Source of the DNA: an uncultured Haloferula sp.
Lineage (GTDB): Bacteria; Verrucomicrobiota; Verrucomicrobiia; Verrucomicrobiales; Akkermansiaceae
NCBI GenBank assembly: GCA_965652295.1
Contig: CBFGTS010000009.1
Span: forward strand, 133,066-197,065
Length of the DNA stretch: 64,000 nt
Reading direction: 5' to 3'
Position numbers and translations under genes: made by a program. Below the pieces are notes generated by a model that did no database searches, was not told the DNA's origin, and was given only the letters and a program-made list of their open reading frames with translations. Below are positions 52,215 through 64,000 of this stretch, piece by piece (position 1 is the stretch's first letter; every line of letters begins with the position of its first letter).

Positions 52215-53207
52215 ATGCGTCCCTTGCTCGCCAGTCTCCGGATTGCCAACGCCCCGAGCGTCGTCAGCAACGTCGCCTTCGGCATCCTGCTCGGCGGTTG
52301 GTACTGGGGCTTCGGGCTGCACGACAGCATTTCCACCGGCTCGGTGTTGGCATGGGCCTCGGCCGTGGGACTGCTGCTGCTTTTCGCCGGAAACCTGCTG
52401 AACGACTGGCATGACCGCGACTGGGACGCCCGCCACCGGCCCGAACGCGCGCTGCCCTCGGGTCGGTTCCCGCCGCGGCTCTATCTCGTTCTCGGCGGCA
52501 TCATGCTGGTCGCCGCGCTCGCCCTCTCCGCGTTCCTCGGGCTTGCGGTCGTCATCAACACCGCGCTGATCGCCGCCTGCATCATCGTCTACACCCTGTT
52601 CCACAAACGCTGCCTGTGGGCGGTGATCCCGATGGCCGCCTGCCGCGCCGGGCTCTACGGCTTCGGCTTCCTGTTCTTCTCGCCGCTCGGCCCGCTGGAT
52701 CTCGGAGCGTCCCTTCCAGGCACCGGCGGTGGGTTTGCCGAAACTCTCGAACCCCGCACCCGCGCCATCGGTTTCGCGCTGATTCCGATGATCGGGTTGT
52801 TCGGCTACCTCGTCGGCCTGTCGCTCAACGCGCGCTACGAGAGCCTCGAACGTCCGCCGCCCGGCATGGTCTTGATCGCGCGATCCCTGCTTTTCCTTCC
52901 ACTGGCCACCCACTCATGCTGGTGGATTCCGTGGTATCCGAAAATCGGCACCCTCGCCCTGCTGCCCTTTGCCCTGTGGCTGCTCATCGCGCTGCTTTTC
53001 CATCGAAAACGTCTGCCCGCCTTCGTATCCGCCCTCCTCGCCGGGATCCCGCTCATCGATTTCATCGGCATCGCTCCGGCCGTTTCCACCGTGCTCGGGC
53101 CCGATCAGGTGATTTCCGACGACCCCCACGCCGTCATTGGCTTCGCCGTCACCCTCGGTGCCTTCGCCCTCGCGAGGCTTCTTCAAAAGGTCGCGCCAGC
53201 CACATAG
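52215..53207 (+). CDS. UbiA-family prenyltransferase (EboC-like)
   Basis: LRIANAPSVVSN, LNDWHDRDWD, RPERALPSG and MAACR; multi-TM; directly after eboE. Confidence 0.8.
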   Translation: MRPLLASLRIANAPSVVSNVAFGILLGGWYWGFGLHDSISTGSVLAWASAVGLLLLFAGNLLNDWHDRDWDARHRPERALPSGRFPPRLYLVLGGIMLVAALALSAFLGLAVVINTALIAACIIVYTLFHKRCLWAVIPMAACRAGLYGFGFLFFSPLGPLDLGASLPGTGGGFAETLEPRTRAIGFALIPMIGLFGYLVGLSLNARYESLERPPPGMVLIARSLLFLPLATHSCWWIPWYPKIGTLALLPFALWLLIALLFHRKRLPAFVSALLAGIPLIDFIGIAPAVSTVLGPDQVISDDPHAVIGFAVTLGAFALARLLQKVAPAT

Positions 53208-53335
53208 GAGGTGGGACGCCCTCGTCCCACAATCCCGGCAGCGATGGGAGCTCCTCGATGCGGACGGGATGGAGAAAACGGGTCTTTTGACAGGAGAGGC
53301 TGCACCGTTGTGGGACGAGGGCGTCCCACCTCCTA
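53205..53335. repeat. REP doublet (family 1)
   Basis: Perfect inverted 28-mers TAGGAGGTGGGACGCCCTCGTCCCACAA at 53205-53232 and 53308-53335. Confidence 0.85.
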
Positions 53336-54370
53336 CTCACGCCACATCTCACAGGCGTGCGCCGCGAAGCCCGCCCCGAACGCCGTCAGCCACCATCGCG
53401 AGTCGCCGTTCACAGTGGCAAGCGCCCGTTCCACGGCGAACATCACCGACGGGCTGCTCATGTTCCCGCAATCCGCCAGCACCGCGCGTGTCTCATCCAG
53501 CGGCCGACCCAGCCTTTCCTCCAACGCCTCGATCACGTCGCGTCCACCGGAATGGGCCAGCACCCGGTCCGGTTCACTACTACATTTCTCGTACAACTGC
53601 CCCACCGCCTCCGCCGCCAGCGAGGGCACGGCCTTGTCGAGCTGATTGCGCAACTTGCCGCCGGCATTCACGAAGCGGATCTTTTCCCGGTGCTCGGGAC
53701 GGTGGACGGTGGTGAAATGGCCCGCCCGCCACTTCCCCTCACCCGGCTGGTCCGACCACACCGCGGCAGCCGCGCCATCGCCGAAGAGGCACAGCGAGAT
53801 CAGCACGCCCGGATCGTCATCGGCGAAAAACGCGGCGGAGCAGATTTCCACCGCCACCGTCGCCACCTTCGAGCCGGGGTGGGCGGCGAGATATCCCGCC
53901 GCGGCCCGCCAGGTCGGGATCGTCGCCCCGCAGCCGAGCCCGACCAGATCCTGAAAGTACGCCGAATCCCGTAGACCGAGGATTTCCGCCACGTGACTCG
54001 TCACCCCCGGACACAGGTAGCCGGTGCAGGTGCAGACCAGCAGCGCATCGAGTTCCCCGGCTCCGACGCCCGCCTGCTCCAGGGCCTTGCGCAACGCCTC
54101 GGCCGCGAGCACCGGAGCCTCACGCTCGAACACCTCGTTGAGCTGTTGGGCATCGCGACCCACCACCGGTCCGATCTCCGGCAGGCAGAAATGCCGCGAC
54201 AGGATCCCTGACACCCCGTTCGCCAACACCTTGCCGACCAAGGCCCGCGAGCGCGGCTTCAATGCGTCGAAAAGCGGCGTCTCCTTCAGCGCCACGAGAC
54301 ACTCGGGCTGGGTGAAACGGTGGGGCGGCAGGGCGGTGGCGAGGCTTTCGAGGTACATGGGGGAAGTCAT
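53333..54370 (-). CDS. Type III polyketide synthase (chalcone/stilbene synthase-like)
   Basis: TCTGYLCPG, catalytic [21 protein letters not shown] and GNMSSPSV triad motifs. Confidence 0.9.
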
Positions 54371-56269: not shown

Positions 56270-57580
56270 ATGACCGCCCGCGAATCCGCCACCGAGCTCG
56301 CCCACCGCCTCACCACGGCGGGGCACACCGCGCTGTTCGCCGGCGGCTGCGTGCGCGACCGCCTTCTGGGGCACGAGCCGAAGGATTTCGACATCGCCAC
56401 CTCCGCCACCCCCGCCGAAGTGCTCGCGCTCTTCCCCGGCTCCAACGAAGTCGGGGCCCATTTCGGCGTCGTCATCGTCCGCCACCGCGGACACCACACC
56501 GAGATTGCCACCTTCCGCACCGATGGCTCCTACAAGGACGGCCGCCGTCCGGAACAAGTGATCTTTTCCACCCCGGAGGAAGACGCCGCACGACGCGATT
56601 TCACCATCAACGCCCTATTTGAAGATCCCTTCAGCGGCGAAATCATCGATCACACCGGCGGTCTCGCCGACCTCAAGACCAAGCGCCTGCGCACCGTCGG
56701 GAGGCCCGCCGACCGGTTTGAGGAAGACGCCCTGCGCCTTCTCCGCGCGGTCCGTTTCGCCGCACGGCTCGACTTTGAAATCGAAGCAGAGACATGGACC
56801 GCCGCCTGCGAACTTGCGCCGACGCTCGCGCGGATTTCCATCGAGCGCATCCGAGACGAATTCTCCCGCATCCTCACCTGCCCGAGCCGCGCCCGCGGCT
56901 TCGATCGGCTCACCGAGTCCGGCATGATCGACGTCTTTCTCCCCGAAATCCGCACCCTCATCGGTTGCGAGCAGCCGCCGCAATGGCATCCGGAGGGCGA
57001 CGTCTATGTCCACACGCGGATCATGCTCGACCTCCTCGGCGACGACGCACCGCTCCCGCTGTGTCTCGCCGTCCTGCTGCACGACATCGCCAAGCCGCCC
57101 ACCCGGACCATCGATCCCGATGGCCGCATCCGTTTCAACGGCCACGACGCTCTAGGTGCCACCATGGCCCGGGAAATCCTGCAGCGTCTGAAATACCCGA
57201 ACGCGGTCATCGACGACGTCGCCTTCATGGTCTCCCGCCACATGCAGTTCATGCACGTTCAGGACATGCGCGTCGCGAAACTGAAGCGTTTCATGGTCGC
57301 GCCGACTTTCCCGCACGAACTTGAGCTCCACCGGGTCGATTGCGCCTCGTCCAACGGCTTCACCGACAACCTCGAGTTCCTCATCGCCAAGCGCGAGGAA
57401 TTCGCCAACGAGCCCATCGTCCCCCCTCCCTTCATCACCGGTCGCGACCTCATCGACCGCGGCCTCGAGCCCGGACCGGTCTTCCGGGAAATCCTCGAAG
57501 ACGCCCAGACTGAGCAACTCGAAGGCAGCCTGAAGTCCCGCGCCGCAGCCCTCACCTGGCTCGATCAGCGGCTCGCCTGA
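56270..57580 (+). CDS. cca: tRNA nucleotidyltransferase (CCA-adding) with HD domain
   Basis: GGCVRD, DFD, EIATFR, RRDFTINA, EDALRLLRAVRF, HPEGDV and LLHDIAK. Confidence 0.9.
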   Translation: MTARESATELAHRLTTAGHTALFAGGCVRDRLLGHEPKDFDIATSATPAEVLALFPGSNEVGAHFGVVIVRHRGHHTEIATFRTDGSYKDGRRPEQVIFSTPEEDAARRDFTINALFEDPFSGEIIDHTGGLADLKTKRLRTVGRPADRFEEDALRLLRAVRFAARLDFEIEAETWTAACELAPTLARISIERIRDEFSRILTCPSRARGFDRLTESGMIDVFLPEIRTLIGCEQPPQWHPEGDVYVHTRIMLDLLGDDAPLPLCLAVLLHDIAKPPTRTIDPDGRIRFNGHDALGATMAREILQRLKYPNAVIDDVAFMVSRHMQFMHVQDMRVAKLKRFMVAPTFPHELELHRVDCASSNGFTDNLEFLIAKREEFANEPIVPPPFITGRDLIDRGLEPGPVFREILEDAQTEQLEGSLKSRAAALTWLDQRLA

Positions 57581-57608
57581 ACGGCTCGCGTCGTTTCGAC
57601 ATCTTGGC

Positions 57609-58220
57609 TCAGAACTTCACCGCCCAGACCTGGAGTCCGGACATGATCATCTGGACGGCGACCGTGCCGACGAACAACGCGGCGATTCTTCCCACCACTT
57701 CGATGTAGCGCTGGATCAGCGGCTCCCGGCGCGGCTTCACGTAATCATGGAGCCATTTCAGAGCGATGATGACCACCAACGACAAGGCCACGGCCCCGAC
57801 CACCGTCGCGCATGCGATCAAAGGATCGTGCCTTTTCCCGGCCAGCACGCTGGCGCTGATCGTGCCCGGCCCGATGAAAACCGGCATCGCGATCGCGCCT
57901 GCCAGCTGATCGGAATCGCCGCGCAGGATCTCGATCGCGCTCGGCCCCCGGAACACGAACTGGATGCCGATCAGCAGGAACACCACCCCGCCGAAAATCT
58001 GGAACGACGCGAAATCCGCCTGCACGACATCCGCGAACACCGCATCCCCCACCAGCGCGAACGCGCAGAACACCGCCACCGCGATCAAACCCGCCCGCAG
58101 CAGCACCGAGGTGAAGGCACGCTGGTTGAGGCGCTGCACCACATCGACCAGGTAGATCATCAGCAGAAACGGATTGAGCAGGAAAAACACCAGGGCGGCG
58201 GTCCGGAGCGGATCGTTCAT
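57609..58220 (-). CDS. MarC-family membrane protein
   Basis: LLNPF, SFQIFGG and AMPVFIGPGTIS; about 6 TM helices. Confidence 0.85.
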   Translation of the reverse strand: MNDPLRTAALVFFLLNPFLLMIYLVDVVQRLNQRAFTSVLLRAGLIAVAVFCAFALVGDAVFADVVQADFASFQIFGGVVFLLIGIQFVFRGPSAIEILRGDSDQLAGAIAMPVFIGPGTISASVLAGKRHDPLIACATVVGAVALSLVVIIALKWLHDYVKPRREPLIQRYIEVVGRIAALFVGTVAVQMIMSGLQVWAVKF

Positions 58221-58339
58221 TCCGTCAGGCTACGGCATGGAAAAGCCCGCTTACAGACCGAAGGGCTCCTTATTTCTTCACCCGCCACCGCCGCGGGCGG
58301 TGACCCTCGATTCCCTCAGCGAAATCGCTCCACAAGACT

Positions 58340-58744
58340 CTATTTGTGCCGGACGCCGGTTGAAACCAAGGTTTTGCCGTCGGCCGAGAGTTCGAACAGG
58401 CGGGGCATGTCACCCTGTCCGGAGATTGTCTGAACCGACTTGTGGAAGAGCCATCGATCGAGAATGAGGAGCGGCCAGTCGAGCGGGTAGGATTGCGGAA
58501 GGCGGGTTTGGGGTGCATACCGCGTGCGCATTCGCCCTGCGTCGGGCGGACGAGGAGGCGCTAGTTGCCGTGGCTTGAAGTCCGTGGGAAACCAGACCGC
58601 CGAAGCGGTTCCGCCCGCGTGAACGACCTCGTGGTAGGACCCACTACGAGATCGGCACGCGTAGAAGCCAATCCAACACGTCAGGAGAAGCAGAATAAGC
58701 GCTGCCATCCTGCCTAACCATCTGCGACGTGGGAATTTCTTCAT
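58340..58744 (-). CDS. Hypothetical protein with N-terminal membrane anchor
   Basis: ATG after A-rich leader; one TM helix; atypical codon usage. Confidence 0.45.
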   Translation of the reverse strand: MKKFPRRRWLGRMAALILLLLTCWIGFYACRSRSGSYHEVVHAGGTASAVWFPTDFKPRQLAPPRPPDAGRMRTRYAPQTRLPQSYPLDWPLLILDRWLFHKSVQTISGQGDMPRLFELSADGKTLVSTGVRHK

Positions 58745-58869
58745 TTTCTGGTGCGATGAGCACGTGCACTCCTATCGGGTGGAGGCGCGTGTCGATCACA
58801 GGGGTTGGATTGCAGCCAGTCAACCCATCAAAAGTGAACGGCTATTGCGGGTTTTCCCGTCGGCTCTGT

Positions 58870-58980
58870 CACGGCATCGTCGCCAACCTCAACAAAAGGC
58901 CGCGAAAGCGCCATGGCTATCTTAGCCCAAGTGATCTACTCCTCACCGAGACTTTGCGTTGCACTTCACTCTTGAAGTGA
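58870..58980 (+). mobile_element. IS30-family remnant (transposase C-terminus plus right end)
   Basis: Peptide ANLNKRPRKRHGYLSP matches the IS30 C-terminal LNxRPRKxLGxxTP motif; followed by GTTGCACTTCACTCTTGAA, an IS30-like end. Confidence 0.65.
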
Positions 58981-59295
58981 AGCTTTGGTATCTTGCGCGT
59001 TGCCCTGCGGATTCGCATCATCAAGGGCTGCCTCATACTTGTCGATAATGCTGGTGAAAACCCCGTCGTATTTGCTGCTTGCGAGCGCCAAATGAACGAC
59101 GCGGTAGGCAACTAACCCGAAGCCAATCGCGCTCCAAATTGGGTCGCGATCTCCAAGGAACCCGAATGCAAACAATCCGATCCCAACGAGTAAGACCGCA
59201 AGATCATATGTCCACGTCCGCCCTGCACCTGATGCGCTTCCGCTCCGGTAATAGGCTACGATAAACTCCTCTTTGGGATCGAACTTTGGGCGCAT
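58966..59295 (-). CDS. Cassette D: hypothetical two-TM protein
   Basis: Lower GC; ATG about 20 bp after the attC core GTTCGGC; its own attC is replaced by the IS30 end. Confidence 0.65.
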   Translation of the reverse strand: MRPKFDPKEEFIVAYYRSGSASGAGRTWTYDLAVLLVGIGLFAFGFLGDRDPIWSAIGFGLVAYRVVHLALASSKYDGVFTSIIDKYEAALDDANPQGNAQDTKASLQE

Positions 59296-59316
59296 TGTTT
59301 TCAGAGTAGTTTTTCT

Positions 59317-59405
59317 GCCGAACGAATAGGCCATCCACGGCGGGGTGGGAAGCTCGAATTCAAATTATGACGTTACCCGCCGTTGGATGAGCTGGCTTGT
59401 TCTCC
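59317..59405 (-). repeat. attC-like site 1 (89 bp)
   Basis: Minus strand GGAGAAC...CATCCAACGGCGGG...CCCGCCGTGGATG...GTTCGGC; imperfect hairpin with an unpaired base. Confidence 0.8.
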
Positions 59406-59858
59406 ATTCTGATTTTTCGATGATACTTTGTCTTGCCAATGCATTCTGAGCCCGGTTTCCGTCTCCGCCTCGATCTCAAATCCAAGTCGCTCATAAAATG
59501 CGACGACACGCTGATTCGTTCTGAAAACACTGAGCTTGATTGGGAAGCCTTCGTGTCTCGCTCTCAGCTTCAGAACTTCCATCGCCATCGAGCCGAATCC
59601 CAAGCTTTGACAACGTGGATGCAGAGCGAGATTCAAAACGTAAAGGTGGTCAGCTTCTGAACGAGTCTGGATATAGCCGAGTAGTTCACCATCTTGAGTC
59701 AGGATCTCCGTCCGGACTTCAGCCCACTCCTTCTGGAAATTGGCAAACTGCCATTCGTCATTCCATCCCCAGATCTCCTTGATATGCTCCCGAAAGAGCT
59801 CTACATGCATATCGAAGATTACTGCTTTATCTGAAAGTGTTGCAGGCCTGAGATTCAT
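59373..59858 (-). CDS. Cassette C: GNAT acetyltransferase
   Basis: LRPAT, IWGWND, LALHPRCQSLGFGS and LSVFRTN..VAFYERLGF; stop inside attC1. Confidence 0.85.
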   Translation of the reverse strand: MNLRPATLSDKAVIFDMHVELFREHIKEIWGWNDEWQFANFQKEWAEVRTEILTQDGELLGYIQTRSEADHLYVLNLALHPRCQSLGFGSMAMEVLKLRARHEGFPIKLSVFRTNQRVVAFYERLGFEIEAETETGLRMHWQDKVSSKNQNGEQASSSNGG

Positions 59859-59870
59859 CTGCGAATTCTT

Positions 59871-59959
59871 GGAGAACGTCTAGCTCATCCACGGCGGGGA
59901 TGGAAGCCTGAATTCAAATTGGAGCGTTGCCCGCCGTTGGATGGAGCGTCTTGTTCTCT
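59871..59959 (-). repeat. attC-like site 2 (89 bp)
   Basis: Minus strand AGAGAAC...CATCCAACGGCGGG...CCCGCCGTGGATG...GTTCTCC; close homologue of site 1. Confidence 0.8.
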
Positions 59960-60585
59960 TTCTTGTGAGTTGTATCAAGGAGGACTTCGCCATCCGGAAT
60001 TGCTCGATACGGAAGATCATTCTCACGGTAGTAATCCACGACAGCCTCCATGCTTTCTGATTCAAAGTGGTCACACCTGTAGTGAGGCACGATATAGTAG
60101 TCAATGACGCCAAGTCCTTCCCATATTGTGGGGTGCTCATATCCGATGGACTGAGCTTCCGGCTCATCAGCCAAGTGAATGCCCCTCAATGAAGGGGAAA
60201 GAACACAAACACCAGCGCTGTAGCCTCCGTAGAGGAAATGCTTGTCGTCAACCTTGGCATGGATCAATTGGTCGAGCCCGCTGAGGTGCATCGCCTTACG
60301 CAGCAAGAAAGTGTTGCCTCCGAGCACCCACAACATGCCAGCTGTCGTTAGCTTCTCAGAAAGGATGCCGTGGGAACTGAAATAGTCTCGTAGATCCAAG
60401 GCCTCTGCAGGGATTCCGAGATCGGCTAACCGACCAATCTCCCGACCCATTCCAGCCTTGAGACGCTCGGTATCATTCGAGAAATCAAGCGCGTTAGAAA
60501 CCACCAGGGCGGTCTTGCCTCGGGCGAGATGCGCGAGTTTGTGACCTTGATCGCCGATAAGATACGATGACAGGTAGAGGTGCAT
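59914..60585 (-). CDS. Cassette B: peptidase E (S51)/class I glutamine amidotransferase-like protein
   Basis: MHLYLSSY, NALD, LGGNTFLL, YGGYSAG and IVPHY; stop inside attC2. Confidence 0.85.
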   Translation of the reverse strand: MHLYLSSYLIGDQGHKLAHLARGKTALVVSNALDFSNDTERLKAGMGREIGRLADLGIPAEALDLRDYFSSHGILSEKLTTAGMLWVLGGNTFLLRKAMHLSGLDQLIHAKVDDKHFLYGGYSAGVCVLSPSLRGIHLADEPEAQSIGYEHPTIWEGLGVIDYYIVPHYRCDHFESESMEAVVDYYRENDLPYRAIPDGEVLLDTTHKKENKTLHPTAGNAPI

Positions 60586-60591
60586 TTTCTC

Positions 60592-60679
60592 AGAGAACGT
60601 AGAGTGGTGGCACCGGGGAGATCAAGCGCCAATTCAACTAGAGACGTTGTCGCCGGTTGCCACTCACGACTTGTTATGT
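60592..60679 (-). repeat. attC-like site 3 (88 bp)
   Basis: Minus strand ACATAAC...GTGGCAACCGG...CCGGTGCCAC...GTTCTCT; same architecture and TTGAATT loop but different stem sequence. Confidence 0.78.
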
Positions 60680-61023
60680 TTGGGTTTCTTCCTATTGCGC
60701 TTGGCTTCGGTATGCAGGTCTTCTTCTAGATCACGCAATGACTTTAGGACGACTTCAATCTCGTCTTGATCGTTCTGCTCTCTCGCTAGCTCCAGCGCCT
60801 TCGTGTAGAGACGACGACGCTCAAGGGGATTATCAATATAGTCCGCGCGAGTACCAAGAATCCGGGATTGCGTGCCGAACTCAGCTTCAAGCTCGTCCAG
60901 TATATCCAGCATCTGCTCACGGTAAACGTCATACATCGGGTCGTTGGCTGCTCGTGTGGCATTGACGACATCACAAGCCTTCTCGTGCACTCGATTCCAC
61001 GCGCTTTTTGAGATGGGCTTCAT
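60664..61023 (-). CDS. Cassette A: hypothetical helical protein
   Basis: ATG 4 bp after GTTGTGC; lower GC; stop inside attC3. Confidence 0.65.
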   Translation of the reverse strand: MKPISKSAWNRVHEKACDVVNATRAANDPMYDVYREQMLDILDELEAEFGTQSRILGTRADYIDNPLERRRLYTKALELAREQNDQDEIEVVLKSLRDLEEDLHTEAKRNRKKPKHNKS

Positions 61024-61027
61024 TCTT

Positions 61028-61123
61028 GCACAACGTCGAAGTCCACACACCCGCTGCCGGGGGCGCAGCTTCGACTCAGGTTGAGGGTTGTAGAGATCCT
61101 GCAAAATCCAACTCGGGGCGGGC
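61028..61123 (-). repeat. Truncated attC-like site 4 (R' half only)
   Basis: Minus strand ...GCAGCGGGTGTGTGGACTTCGACGTTGTGC directly before cassette A; partner arm missing where the IS remnant begins. Confidence 0.55.
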
Positions 61124-61130
61124 GCCGGCG

Positions 61131-61400
61131 CATTTGCGTCAACCTAGCGACGCAAGTCACTGATAGTCAGTATTTTGAATGGTGGAATAGTTGAGAAAAA
61201 GCTTACCCTGCAGGGGGCTCCGGCAAAATCGGCATGTTCGGTGCCAACTTCTCCCTGAGACTCTCAGATTTCGACGCCATCGCAAGAAAATCAGGCCTCA
61301 TCCTCAGGTATTCCCACAAATTCAGCGCCGCCGGCTTCCTCCTGGCTCTACTGCGCTCGGTCACCAAGGGCGACTGCTCGCTCAGGGAAGATTTTGAGTT
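61131..61400 (+). mobile_element. IS4-family remnant (left end plus transposase N-terminal fragment)
   Basis: Begins CATTTGCGTCAACCTA, recalling IS231-type ends (from memory); ORF from 61234 FDAIARKSGLILRYSHKFSAAGFLLALL resembles IS4 transposase N-termini, then degenerates. Confidence 0.5.
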
Positions 61401-62047
61401 TGTTTTTGATGACGGAAGCGAATTGAGGATTTTCGGGAAGGCGATGTGCGGGTGGCTTTCGCATGCATGATGCCTGAAGCTGGGAGGTCAGTGGGTGAGA
61501 CGTCAAATCGAAAGTGTTCGAAAGAACATCGATCCGGCCGTGATGTGGGGGAAAGAGGAGCGGCGGAATGAGTCCGCCAGGAGTGGTCCTTTTCGGCGGT
61601 CTTTTGGAAGAAGCGGCGGAGTGGGGCTGCCTATCTTTGAGGGAGAGGGCCTGCCGGGGGAAGGCGGTGGGACGGGCACTGAGGCCACCGAGCAACCTCT
61701 CATCCTGCCTTTCTCCGTGATCTCCGTCTCGGTGATGGGAAAAGGCAACTTGGGACCTGCCCCGTCACTTTTTCCTTTTTCCTCGTCACTCCCCACTCCT
61801 GCCAGGCGCTCGCCCCACCCCTTCCCGGGCTTGATCGCCCTGCTCCGTGGCCTCCGTCATCTCCGTACCTCCGTGCCGGAAAGAAAGCCCGCTCACTCAA
61901 ACAACTCCTGCCCAACCCAACGGAGCGCCTCCTTTCATGACCTTCATCATGAATGGGCGTTCATTCGCGTGCATTCGCGTGCATTCGCGGTTTCTCCATA
62001 CGCGGAGCTACCTGACGAAGAATCGAGATATGATCGGTGTTTGAAGA

Positions 62048-62446
62048 TCACGCCGAATCCCCACCCACGCTGTTGGTGATCCGGTCCGCCTCGATGGCGA
62101 TGCGGCTGTAGATCGCATCGATTTCCAGGCGGTCCAGATTCAGCTCGGGCACGTCTTCCTCCAACGTGGTCAGCAGGTGCTTCACGAAGCGCCGCAGGTG
62201 CTCCTTGCGGATGCCTTTTCCCGCGTGGACCTGACGCAGCGAGTGCCCGCTGTAGAAAAGCGGTCCTCCGAGCGCTTCGCTGAAGAATTCCTTCTGCATC
62301 ATCCGCAGCCGCTCCATCGGGACGTGCTCGAAAAACGGAGCCAGCTTCGGATCGGCCAGCACGCGCTGGTAAAAGCGGCCCACCAGCAGCTCGATACCGG
62401 CCTCGCCGCCGACGGCTTGGTAAAGTCGATCAGGTTGTTCGCTCAT
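62048..62446 (-). CDS. Group I truncated haemoglobin
   Basis: LYQAVGG, FYQRVLADPKLAPFF, QKEFFSEALGGP..YSG and VHAG. Confidence 0.9.
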   Translation of the reverse strand: MSEQPDRLYQAVGGEAGIELLVGRFYQRVLADPKLAPFFEHVPMERLRMMQKEFFSEALGGPLFYSGHSLRQVHAGKGIRKEHLRRFVKHLLTTLEEDVPELNLDRLEIDAIYSRIAIEADRITNSVGGDSA

Positions 62447-62561
62447 GCTCGCATTTTCACCCGTTTCCACGGAAGGCGACTAAGCACCGCTTGCGAATGA
62501 CCACGCGGCTTTTCCTGAAAATCGTTTGGACCTCCCGGGGGGCATCCCTACGGTTTCAGCC

Positions 62562-63665
62562 ATGCAGCCGACCGTCCCCGTCGAACACACCGATCCCACC
62601 AACGCGAAGATCCTCGCCATTTCCGAGGACCTCGTCTCCGGGTTCCACTCGCATCCGTTCCACGTGATCGCCGAGCAAAGTGGCGTCGACCTGCCCACCG
62701 TGCTGGAGCGGATCCGGGCGATGGTCGAAGCCGGGGTGATCCGCCGCGTGCGCCAGACGCTGCTGGCCACCAAGCTCGCCCACGGGGCACTGGTCGCCTG
62801 GCGGGTGCCGGAAGAGAAACTCAACGCCGCCTTCGATTTCATGGCCAAGGAGGATCCGTTCTCCGGCCACGTCGTCATCCGCTCGACGGATACCGACGTC
62901 TCGGGCTCCGGCTACCGGCTGTGGACGACGCTCAAGGTGCCCGTCGGCGAGTCGCTCGACGAGCACGCGACGGTGCTGAAACGTCTCGTTGGAGCCGAGG
63001 AATACCTGCTCATGCCGGCCAACGGCGTCTTCACCCTCGGGGTCGGTCACGTGCGCCGCAAGTCGATGGAGCCCGGCGAGAAAGCGGACGAACCCGCCGT
63101 GATGATGACCACGGCGACGGTCGACCTTTCCCCCGAGGAATGGGAGGTCCTGCTGGTGCTCAAGGAAGAGCTGGCACCGGAGGAAATCGTGGCGGAACCG
63201 TGGGTCGGACGCGCCGCGCAGCTCGGCATGCCGGTCGAGCGTTTCTGCGAAATCGCCATGGGACTGAACGCGAAGAAGGTCGTCGGCCGTTTCTCGACTT
63301 TCCTTGAACACGTCAAACCGTCCGCCACGGGCGAGCGCGTGACCCGCTTCAACGGCCTGTTTCACTGGGCGGTGCCGAAGGGCCGCGAAATCGAGGCCGG
63401 CGGCGAGGTCGGTCGCCATTACTGCATGACCCACTGCTACTGGCGCGAGGGCGGGCCGCAGTTTGGAAACGTGAACGTCATGGGCGTGGTCCACGGCACG
63501 GAGAAGGAGCGGGTGCTGGCCCACAAGGCGGCAATCGATGCCCATCTCGAAAGCGTCGGCATCCCGGTGAGCTACACCAATGTCTTCTGGGGCGGTCGCT
63601 CGGAGATCAAACCCTCGGAGATTTCCCCGAAGGTCTACCGCGAGTGGCACGCCCTCCATGCCTGA
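62562..63665 (+). CDS. Fused AhbA/AhbB (NirD/L-like) Lrp/AsnC-fold protein, probable sirohaem decarboxylase
   Basis: Two HTH+AsnC repeats (HPF..IAE...GVIRR, ALVAWRV; EPW...KVVGRF, THCYWR). Confidence 0.7.
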   Translation: MQPTVPVEHTDPTNAKILAISEDLVSGFHSHPFHVIAEQSGVDLPTVLERIRAMVEAGVIRRVRQTLLATKLAHGALVAWRVPEEKLNAAFDFMAKEDPFSGHVVIRSTDTDVSGSGYRLWTTLKVPVGESLDEHATVLKRLVGAEEYLLMPANGVFTLGVGHVRRKSMEPGEKADEPAVMMTTATVDLSPEEWEVLLVLKEELAPEEIVAEPWVGRAAQLGMPVERFCEIAMGLNAKKVVGRFSTFLEHVKPSATGERVTRFNGLFHWAVPKGREIEAGGEVGRHYCMTHCYWREGGPQFGNVNVMGVVHGTEKERVLAHKAAIDAHLESVGIPVSYTNVFWGGRSEIKPSEISPKVYREWHALHA

Positions 63666-63668
63666 GGA

Positions 63669-64000
63669 TAGGAGGTGGGACGCCCTCGTCCCACAACCCC
63701 GGCAGCGGAAACCACCTTGGCGCAGGCTGCTGATCGGCCCGGGCAGGAGGCCGCGGATCTCGGGGAAAAGAGATCGGGATGGCTCCTGTGTCTGCCGACA
63801 ATCGAATGCCGGAAGACGTGCGTGGATGGCTCGATCGGGTCGCGCTGCGATGATGAGATGGGCTTGGTCTGGGAGAAGTGCCTGAACCGTTTGTGGGACG
63901 AGGGCGTCCCACCTCCGATCCATCCCGGACCGAATGCGACGATTTTAGGAGGTGGGACGCCCTCGTCCCACAACCCCGGCAGCGGAAACCACCTTGGCGC
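63669..64000. repeat. REP family 1 tandem array (BIME), runs off the window
   Basis: REP at 63669-63696, inverted copy at 63891-63916, third copy at 63946; 63946-64000 is identical to 63669-63723 (277-bp unit). Confidence 0.85.

Follow-up and report, generated by a model that had tools for sequence, protein, structure and literature searches.

We analysed a window of 64,000 nucleotides, the end of contig C9 in the assembly of an uncultured Haloferula sp. (the source genome, G000), which holds a short array of gene cassettes with attC sites and a remnant of an insertion sequence (IS) at each end. The array is almost certainly a group of clustered attC sites without an integron integrase (CALIN) composed of true attC cassettes, and in itself it adds little, as CALINs and GTTC cores have been published for Verrucomicrobiota. 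The unusual part is the lineage of IS4-family elements found at the array head, which very probably targets attC sites. We further propose that the cassette row was built by the integron integrase IntI and was then probably cut loose by an IS4 element inside the fourth attC site. The two IS scars, absent from the original prediction made for this DNA from its letters, are the more interesting part of the locus.

The array head and the origin of the array

The array starts with a fourth attC site, overlooked in the original prediction, that is severed at 61131 by the left end of an IS4-family element (Table 1). Sites of the same type occur whole on contigs C18, C11 and C4 of the source genome. 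The transposase N-terminus encoded by the stump is 64% identical over 50 aa to the transposase of a relative (L060) that passes the NF033592 model, and the stump itself is 95-97% identical to copies on contigs C14 and C30. Full relatives measure 1.38-1.47 kb; NF033592 scores above cut-off in two of them (L060 and L061), PF01609 matches, and L061 carries the YREK motif spaced as Y-2-R-3-E-6-K. The head element and its relatives belong to the IS4 family as defined in section 6 of PMC2266710 (literature statements here and below refer to the available portions of the cited texts). All five ends of this lineage in the source genome sit in attC sites or attC remnants, and the left flank of the IS4 copy on C14 equals the right flank on C18. 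The stump (cut at 61385) and the copy at C14:57903 are truncated at the same base, 254, with different DNA beyond.

In the course of events that we consider probable, an ordinary IntI would have assembled the cassette row earlier, with bottom strands folding into hairpins and being cut by IntI at G|TT. An IS4 element would then have entered attC 4, its transposase reading a 10-bp target (A-C...C-C) from the second unpaired base together with a further attC feature. Subsequently, a deletion beginning within the element would have carried away its right portion together with the left arm of attC 4 and the upstream DNA, including attI and earlier cassettes; the last attC was likely lost to an IS30 element in much the same manner. 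An intact IntI arriving in the cell could in principle still excise cassettes 2 and 3. That the IS4 element caused the detachment is a narrower claim, towards which the evidence leans slightly.

Several observations speak against this history. The target copy beside the stump is decayed, matching the expected arm at 6 of 10 positions, and the order of events is unreadable. The DNA upstream of the stump consists of genome-wide repeats and is no proof of a lost attI; we dropped these repeats as evidence for a lost attI platform for that reason. The peptidase gene occurs without attC in two related genomes (G024 and G017), and homologues of the GNAT and membrane-protein genes (33-64% identity) do not lie beside attC in any of eight loci. 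Both recombination and transposition, moreover, are read here from sequence alone.

It is possible, if rather doubtful, that the cassettes were delivered by IntI in trans, either to a secondary site or to a stand-alone attI, and that IS4 and IS30 represent later damage without a role in detaching the array from an integron. Several attI-headed arrays without an integrase exist in the source genome, and the secondary-site route to CALINs is given in Cury et al. (2016, PMC4889954). The junction behind the CCA-adding-enzyme gene takes unrelated inserts in relatives, whose eight orthologous loci all lack attC, ruling out a conserved integron locus at this place; in G018 and G003 the flanking host genes are directly adjacent, with no insert. 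However, half an attC joined to an IS end forms the array's start, which means that the end of at least one upstream cassette disappeared at the IS, whereas a fresh secondary-site insertion would start at GTT in host DNA. The insert-taking junction spans window positions 57580-62060, between the CCA-adding-enzyme gene and globin/AsnC-like genes (L029, L034-L040).

An IS4 lineage at attC sites

Further IS4 ends were collected by transposase similarity and end pattern, blind to their flanks, and duplicates were removed; the sample takes in most, not all, matches of one search. Flanks were scored against a threshold set at the 99th percentile of random genome positions, with attC offsets of 32-36 nt allowed. 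Of 28 right ends (CAATCGCG), 19 directly adjoin an attC left arm, all of them 32-33 nt from the arm start, and the proportion is 13 of 22 when the source genome and G139-like seeds are set aside. The nine misses comprise two probable chance hits of the pattern, one left end, three left arms judged by eye to be decayed, and three other sites; a variant right end (L069) fails the attC test. For left-type ends, the rest of an attC follows in 9 of 20, one end with a 10-nt flank being excluded. In a sister IS4 clade with symmetric CATTCGCG ends, by comparison, none of 34 ends passes, and one (L079) lies in an attC by eye. The difference between lineage and sister clade gives a Fisher p of 2e-9, computed on kin that are not independent.

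The insertions also share their register and orientation. Among the passing cases, the transposase gene is without exception oriented opposite to the cassettes, and the 10-bp duplication lies inside the left stem and begins at the outer (second) extrahelical base, an A. The elements have terminal inverted repeats, and the duplication is perfect (10/10) in L065, L100 and L148 and matches at 9/10 in L069 and L120. Eight elements have both ends in attC, with flanks that match at 9-10 of 10 positions in four, at 8 in one and at 5-6 in three; the flanks of L070, L074 and L078 match at only 5-6. L060 and L074 have one flank in common and differ in the other. Such mismatched and half-shared flanks would be expected after deletions between attC sites.

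Taken together, these data make attC targeting by the lineage highly probable. Counting against it, the strict test is failed by 9 of the 28 right ends and by 11 of the 20 left-type ends, and L061, the right end of L077 and the left end of L075 are plainly outside attC. The transposase tree, built on 22 rows of at least 140 aa with six shorter hits excluded, shows no single attC clade (at least three changes, poorly resolved).

A lineage that does not seek attC, and that owes its distribution to a short ..CC preference and to survival in dispensable cassette DNA, is improbable. Such a preference does exist. Target positions 9-10 are CC in 27 of 28 used targets, compared with 17 of 43 attC, the sister clade has a weak CC end too, and the three intact 88-89-bp sites of the window array, which have no CC, are unhit, as the CC preference would predict. 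Survival, however, cannot yield a single register and a single orientation. Only 15 of the 351 exact target 10-mers in the source genome lie inside attC, leaving 336 outside, and although 14 of 17 sites have this 10-mer in their mirror arm as well, at most two ends (L066 and L078) could be hits there. The scarcity of 10-mers in attC and the mostly unhit mirror arm indicate that sequence reading is part, not all, of the targeting; flanking sequence, the shape of the hairpin or bound IntI might supply the remainder.

Tentatively, the lineage may recognize the attC hairpin, or attC bound by IntI, at the outer unpaired base, which IntI reads too, with IS30 acting likewise at the R'' edge; we regard this as a rather unlikely extension of attC targeting. 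If true, deletions and rearrangements made by IS4 elements would cut arrays in whole-cassette units, all targets being one and the same point of an attC, making these elements an integrase-independent editor of arrays and a maker of CALINs. In any case, an attC-seeking IS4 lineage would mean that an ordinary DDE transposase acts on a structure-defined site in one fixed register and orientation. It would offer a concrete, testable way for cassette arrays to lose their integrase, and an example from nature of site-specific DDE transposition.

The elements resemble IS4 members with IS231/ISH8-type ends (De Palmenaer 2008, PMC2266710) in their DDE and YREK residues, CAT end, 10-bp duplication and length of about 1.4 kb, and differ from the members described there in their asymmetric ends (CATT/CAAT) and attC targeting. 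Likeness to subgroups (IS231, ISH8, IS4Sa) refers to end motifs compared with table 1 of that paper, whose main text does not contain the word 'integron'. A fixed attC position is also known for the IS1111-attC group (ISKpn4, ISPst6; PMC11187229). Those elements, however, have a DEDD transposase, RNA guidance and sub-terminal repeats, whereas the IS4 lineage has a DDE transposase, terminal inverted repeats and a 10-bp duplication, which places it outside that group. Group IIC-attC introns (PMC3001079) are attC parasites too, but retroelements rather than DNA transposons. In the portions available, PMC12444791, PMC11089894 and PMC11187229 describe attC-targeting elements of the IS1111 group alone, and our literature search, with subscription papers thinly covered and ISfinder outside its scope, found no publication on IS4 or IS30 targeting attC.

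We found no IS4 relatives in viral contigs, and a phylum-level search gave only two distant hits in 400 genomes. One attC-inserted element of the lineage (L067) comes from a record that bears the title Gammaproteobacteria, and its attC is of the verrucomicrobial type, reflecting transfer or mis-binning.

At the array tail, the last gene has no attC and an IS30-family end stands in its place. This remnant is 87% identical to C2:85-198 and 69% identical over 35 aa to the transposase encoded there, with NF033563 above cut-off. On C11, too, this IS30 end is found at an attC position, and of the three full copies in G220, two end immediately before an R'' box, which is not the case for the third or for the C2 copy. 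We interpret this as a loose preference of IS30 for the R'' edge of attC, which is less certain than the targeting by IS4. Loci with landings at the R'' edge are window positions 58871-58984, L096, L095 and L099.

Integrase, attC structure and core sequences

The original prediction had the array serviced by a divergent integrase encoded elsewhere, a view that is not supported for the genome in its present state. The only intI-type gene found with TIGR02249 in the source genome lies on C18 and is broken, its two parts scoring 171 and 97 bits; it lacks the N-terminus, as its sequence sets in only around residue 184 of the closest relatives. A piece encoding an N-terminus lies on C14, next to further attC sites. 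Other tyrosine recombinases of the genome score low with TIGR02249, and contig C9 has no match to TIGR02249 or PF00589. Nor is 'divergent' apt, as relatives carry ordinary IntI passing TIGR02249. An intI above cut-off was found in 21 of the 41 genomes searched, the source genome included. In G029 and G003, the arrays with intI at their head comprise at least 8 to 18 such sites and start at an attI-like motif, ..AATAA..CT|GTT. Most IntI proteins of relatives (L008-L018, L042, L046, L047) have an N-terminal extension and are long, their longest frames spanning about 400-550 aa, and divergent and co-oriented layouts of intI and array both occur inside G029.

The same attI-like motif heads arrays on C18, C11, C14 and C4 of the source genome, and none was found upstream of the window array. 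The intact intI, attI and cassette promoter (Pc) that beside an array make a complete integron are not found together here. The attI-like sites lie at C18:1517, C11:87629, C14 near 55800, C4:294597 and C4 near 218900; they have upstream DNA in common, and each heads cassettes without an intact intI.

An array taken from a complete integron by a break in the assembly, or an intact intI missing from the draft, is very unlikely. The assembly is a draft of 35 contigs at 98% completeness, the contig ends 2.9 kb past attC 4 and the middles of the IS are unassembled. Host genes syntenic in relatives nevertheless flank the array on both sides within the contig, and run X2 contigs cover the whole region without a single differing letter, though an unassembled intI may still lie elsewhere.

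The identification of the sites as attC rests on their anatomy, fold and core sequences. Each intact site opens with AAC and a 5-nt spacer, continues through L'' (8 nt, one base unpaired at 16) and L' (7 nt), and closes with a spacer and GTT, which is the anatomy described in PMC5027507. An unpaired A at 23 on the top strand (T on the bottom) is present in 3/3 array sites and in 42 of 43 aligned sites, while base 16 varies. In all three sites, folding is better for the bottom strand than for the top, with bottom-strand folding z of -2.2 to -4.0. In an alignment of 43 sites from the source and related genomes, pairs form in 89% of cells under a structure set by hand from the same sites, the corresponding figures being 61% for shuffles and 28-41% when partners are slid, and compensatory changes occur in 16 of 16 stem pairs.

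An initial genome-wide search by structure lacked stringency, its 128 hits being largely noise, and BLAST seeds and a covariance model were used instead. The model, trained on the 43 rows with the three intact array sites among them, scores these sites at 74, 66 and 66 bits and attC 4 at 36.5 bits, and gives at most 13 bits elsewhere in the 64 kb. In the 4.4-Mb genome, it finds only 14 matches at E<=1e-4, grouped between short co-oriented ORFs (open reading frames). An Rfam scan of 57000-64000 found no attC family and three chance miRNA matches only. The model also has matches in 28 of 34 other genomes of the genus, a few of which gave training rows. Integrons thus appear common in the genus, and a clade-specific attC model would be useful; PMC8352920, in the portion available, contains no Verrucomicrobia model. 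The genome has many other palindromic repeats and three ORFs read into the hairpins, but repeats of the REP (repetitive extragenic palindromic) or MITE (miniature inverted-repeat transposable element) kind at gene ends can hardly account for so few and so clustered matches, the strand-asymmetric bulges at 16 and 23, the chain of cores described below and the arrays beside intact intI and attI in relatives.

The window therefore holds three intact sites and one broken site with no intI within about 4 kb as far as the contig extends, its end lying 2.9 kb from attC 4 with host genes in between, and the CALIN interpretation of the original prediction is upheld by attC anatomy, covariance model and core chain, as are its hairpins of 88-89 bp with 5-6 of 7 core positions paired within a site (5, 6 and 5 found). 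CALINs in Cury et al. 2016 (PMC4889954) likewise have at least two attC, no neighbouring intI, GAAC/GTTC cores and small unknown genes. IS-linked rearrangement is one origin proposed there, and the window array has IS scars at both ends. The examples in that paper come from another order of Verrucomicrobiota and show no difference in kind, and CALINs and verrucomicrobial integrons are already known (PMC4889954, PMC8618304, PMC9024848). The attC of class 1 and sedentary integrons (PMC5027507, PMC3053210) have triplets, 5-nt spacers, L boxes, unpaired bases 16 and 23 and T23 as here, and their length range of 57-141 bp covers the window sites. Unlike in those attC, GTTRRRY is rare, and just one of the three intact sites has a bottom-strand G at base 16.

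The cores had been called non-canonical, which is correct with respect to GTTRRRY (0/4 match here) but no novelty, as such cores are published for Verrucomicrobia. One earlier assignment is corrected, the left core of attC 3 being TAAC, not GAAC. Among 73 sites found by scan in 11 loci, ten from relatives and one from the source genome, the fourth core base is C in 52, A in 13 and G in 8. GTTRRRY fits 2 of the 73, and the clade consensus is GTT-C-(G/T)-(G/C)-(C/T); the GAAC/GTTC core is the clade norm. Insertion of a circular cassette at G|TT leaves a left core equal to the previous right core. A perfect match of this kind had been claimed for each site. It holds at 7/7 for the peptidase and GNAT cassettes, and the first cassette (GTTGTGC/ACATAAC) reaches 5/7. 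In related arrays, 49 of 57 adjacent pairs less than 1.5 kb apart match at 7/7, and the left core equals the site's own right core in only 8 of 73 sites. The proposed 'shuffling footprint' is real but textbook.

According to PMC5027507, the AAC/GTT triplet is the sole stretch conserved in all attC, and GTTRRRY is an extended consensus, not an invariant one. Supplement file 12 of PMC4889954 includes GAAC/GTTC sites of a Coraliomargarita integron and an Opitutus terrae CALIN, with E-values of 0.00095-0.59 in a non-default mode (eight attC rows among 30 of its 48 rows). These weak E-values agree with the expectation that standard models score such sites poorly.

Cassettes, relatives and neighbouring DNA

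Table 1. Features of the cassette array, its IS remnants and the intI pieces of the source genome. Positions are those of the window unless a contig is given.
Feature	Position	Strand	Description
IS4-family left end	61131..61384	+	254 bp: end CATTTGCGTCAACCTA and transposase start; inserted in attC 4, truncated
Cassette array	58966..61130	-	four co-oriented short ORFs, three intact attC, fourth attC broken
attC 4	61028-61130	-	right part only of ~125-bp type, core GTTGTGC; R'' and L'' lost with IS
Cassette 1 (436 bp)	60598..61033	-	119-aa hypothetical ORF 60664-61023 and attC 3
attC 3	60592-60679	-	88 bp, ACATAAC..GTTCTCT; unpaired bases 16 and 23; within-site core pairing 5/7
Cassette 2 (721 bp)	59877..60597	-	peptidase S51/PepE-like ORF 59914-60585 (PF03575) and attC 2
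attC 2	59871-59959	-	89 bp, AGAGAAC..GTTCTCC; classical G16/T23 unpaired on bottom strand; core pairing 6/7
Cassette 3 (554 bp)	59323..59876	-	GNAT ORF 59373-59858 (PF00583) and attC 1
attC 1	59317-59405	-	89 bp, GGAGAAC..GTTCGGC; core pairing 5/7
Cassette 4, without attC	58966..59322	-	109-aa probable membrane protein ORF 58966-59295, stop codon inside IS30 end
IS30-family right-end remnant	58871..58984	+	sits where last attC would begin
intI pseudogene (L057)	C18:2085-3022		210-bp inverted-repeat element (MITE) splits gene; several element copies in genome
intI N-terminal piece (L052)	C14:55232-55477		next to further attC sites

The original prediction described four co-oriented, low-GC ORFs starting 4-21 bp past the cores, and this was confirmed: the array has a GC content of 0.51 compared with 0.635 for the window, and the ATGs lie 4, 6, 12 and 21 bp behind the 7-bp cores. 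Its gene identities also stand in that Pfam gives GNAT and peptidase S51, and the remaining two ORFs have no family above cut-off. The membrane-protein ORF of cassette 4 matched no Pfam, NCBIfam or PADLOC family, and PADLOC found no defence family among five ORFs. The description of the genes as promoterless is not established: a consensus scan gave five weak promoter-like sites compared with 1.5 +/- 1.4 in shuffles, none of them within the short 5' leaders. Three cassette ORFs run into their own attC (59373-59405, 59914-59959 and 60664-60679), which encodes their C-terminal tails. Homologues of the peptidase without attC terminate earlier than the cassette ORF.

The peptidase cassette is mobile. 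G028 has an 87% identical copy among other neighbours, which likewise starts with GTTCTCT and ends in this attC type; the G013 copy is flanked by decayed sites; and on a contig of run X3, the cassette stands behind a different attC. Contigs of runs X2, X3, X5 and X7 show no joint at the cassette borders, and contigs of this kind cannot show excised circles.

Beyond the array tail, a 134-aa ORF without a Pfam family lies at window positions 58340-58810 on the minus strand, preceded by a hairpin and a cassette-like leader. It may be a decayed fifth cassette, one that the covariance model leaves unscored. REP-like repeats of the GGTGGGACGCCCTCGTCCCACAAC family occur at window positions 53207-53360 and 63670-64000, and they are found in coding tails too.

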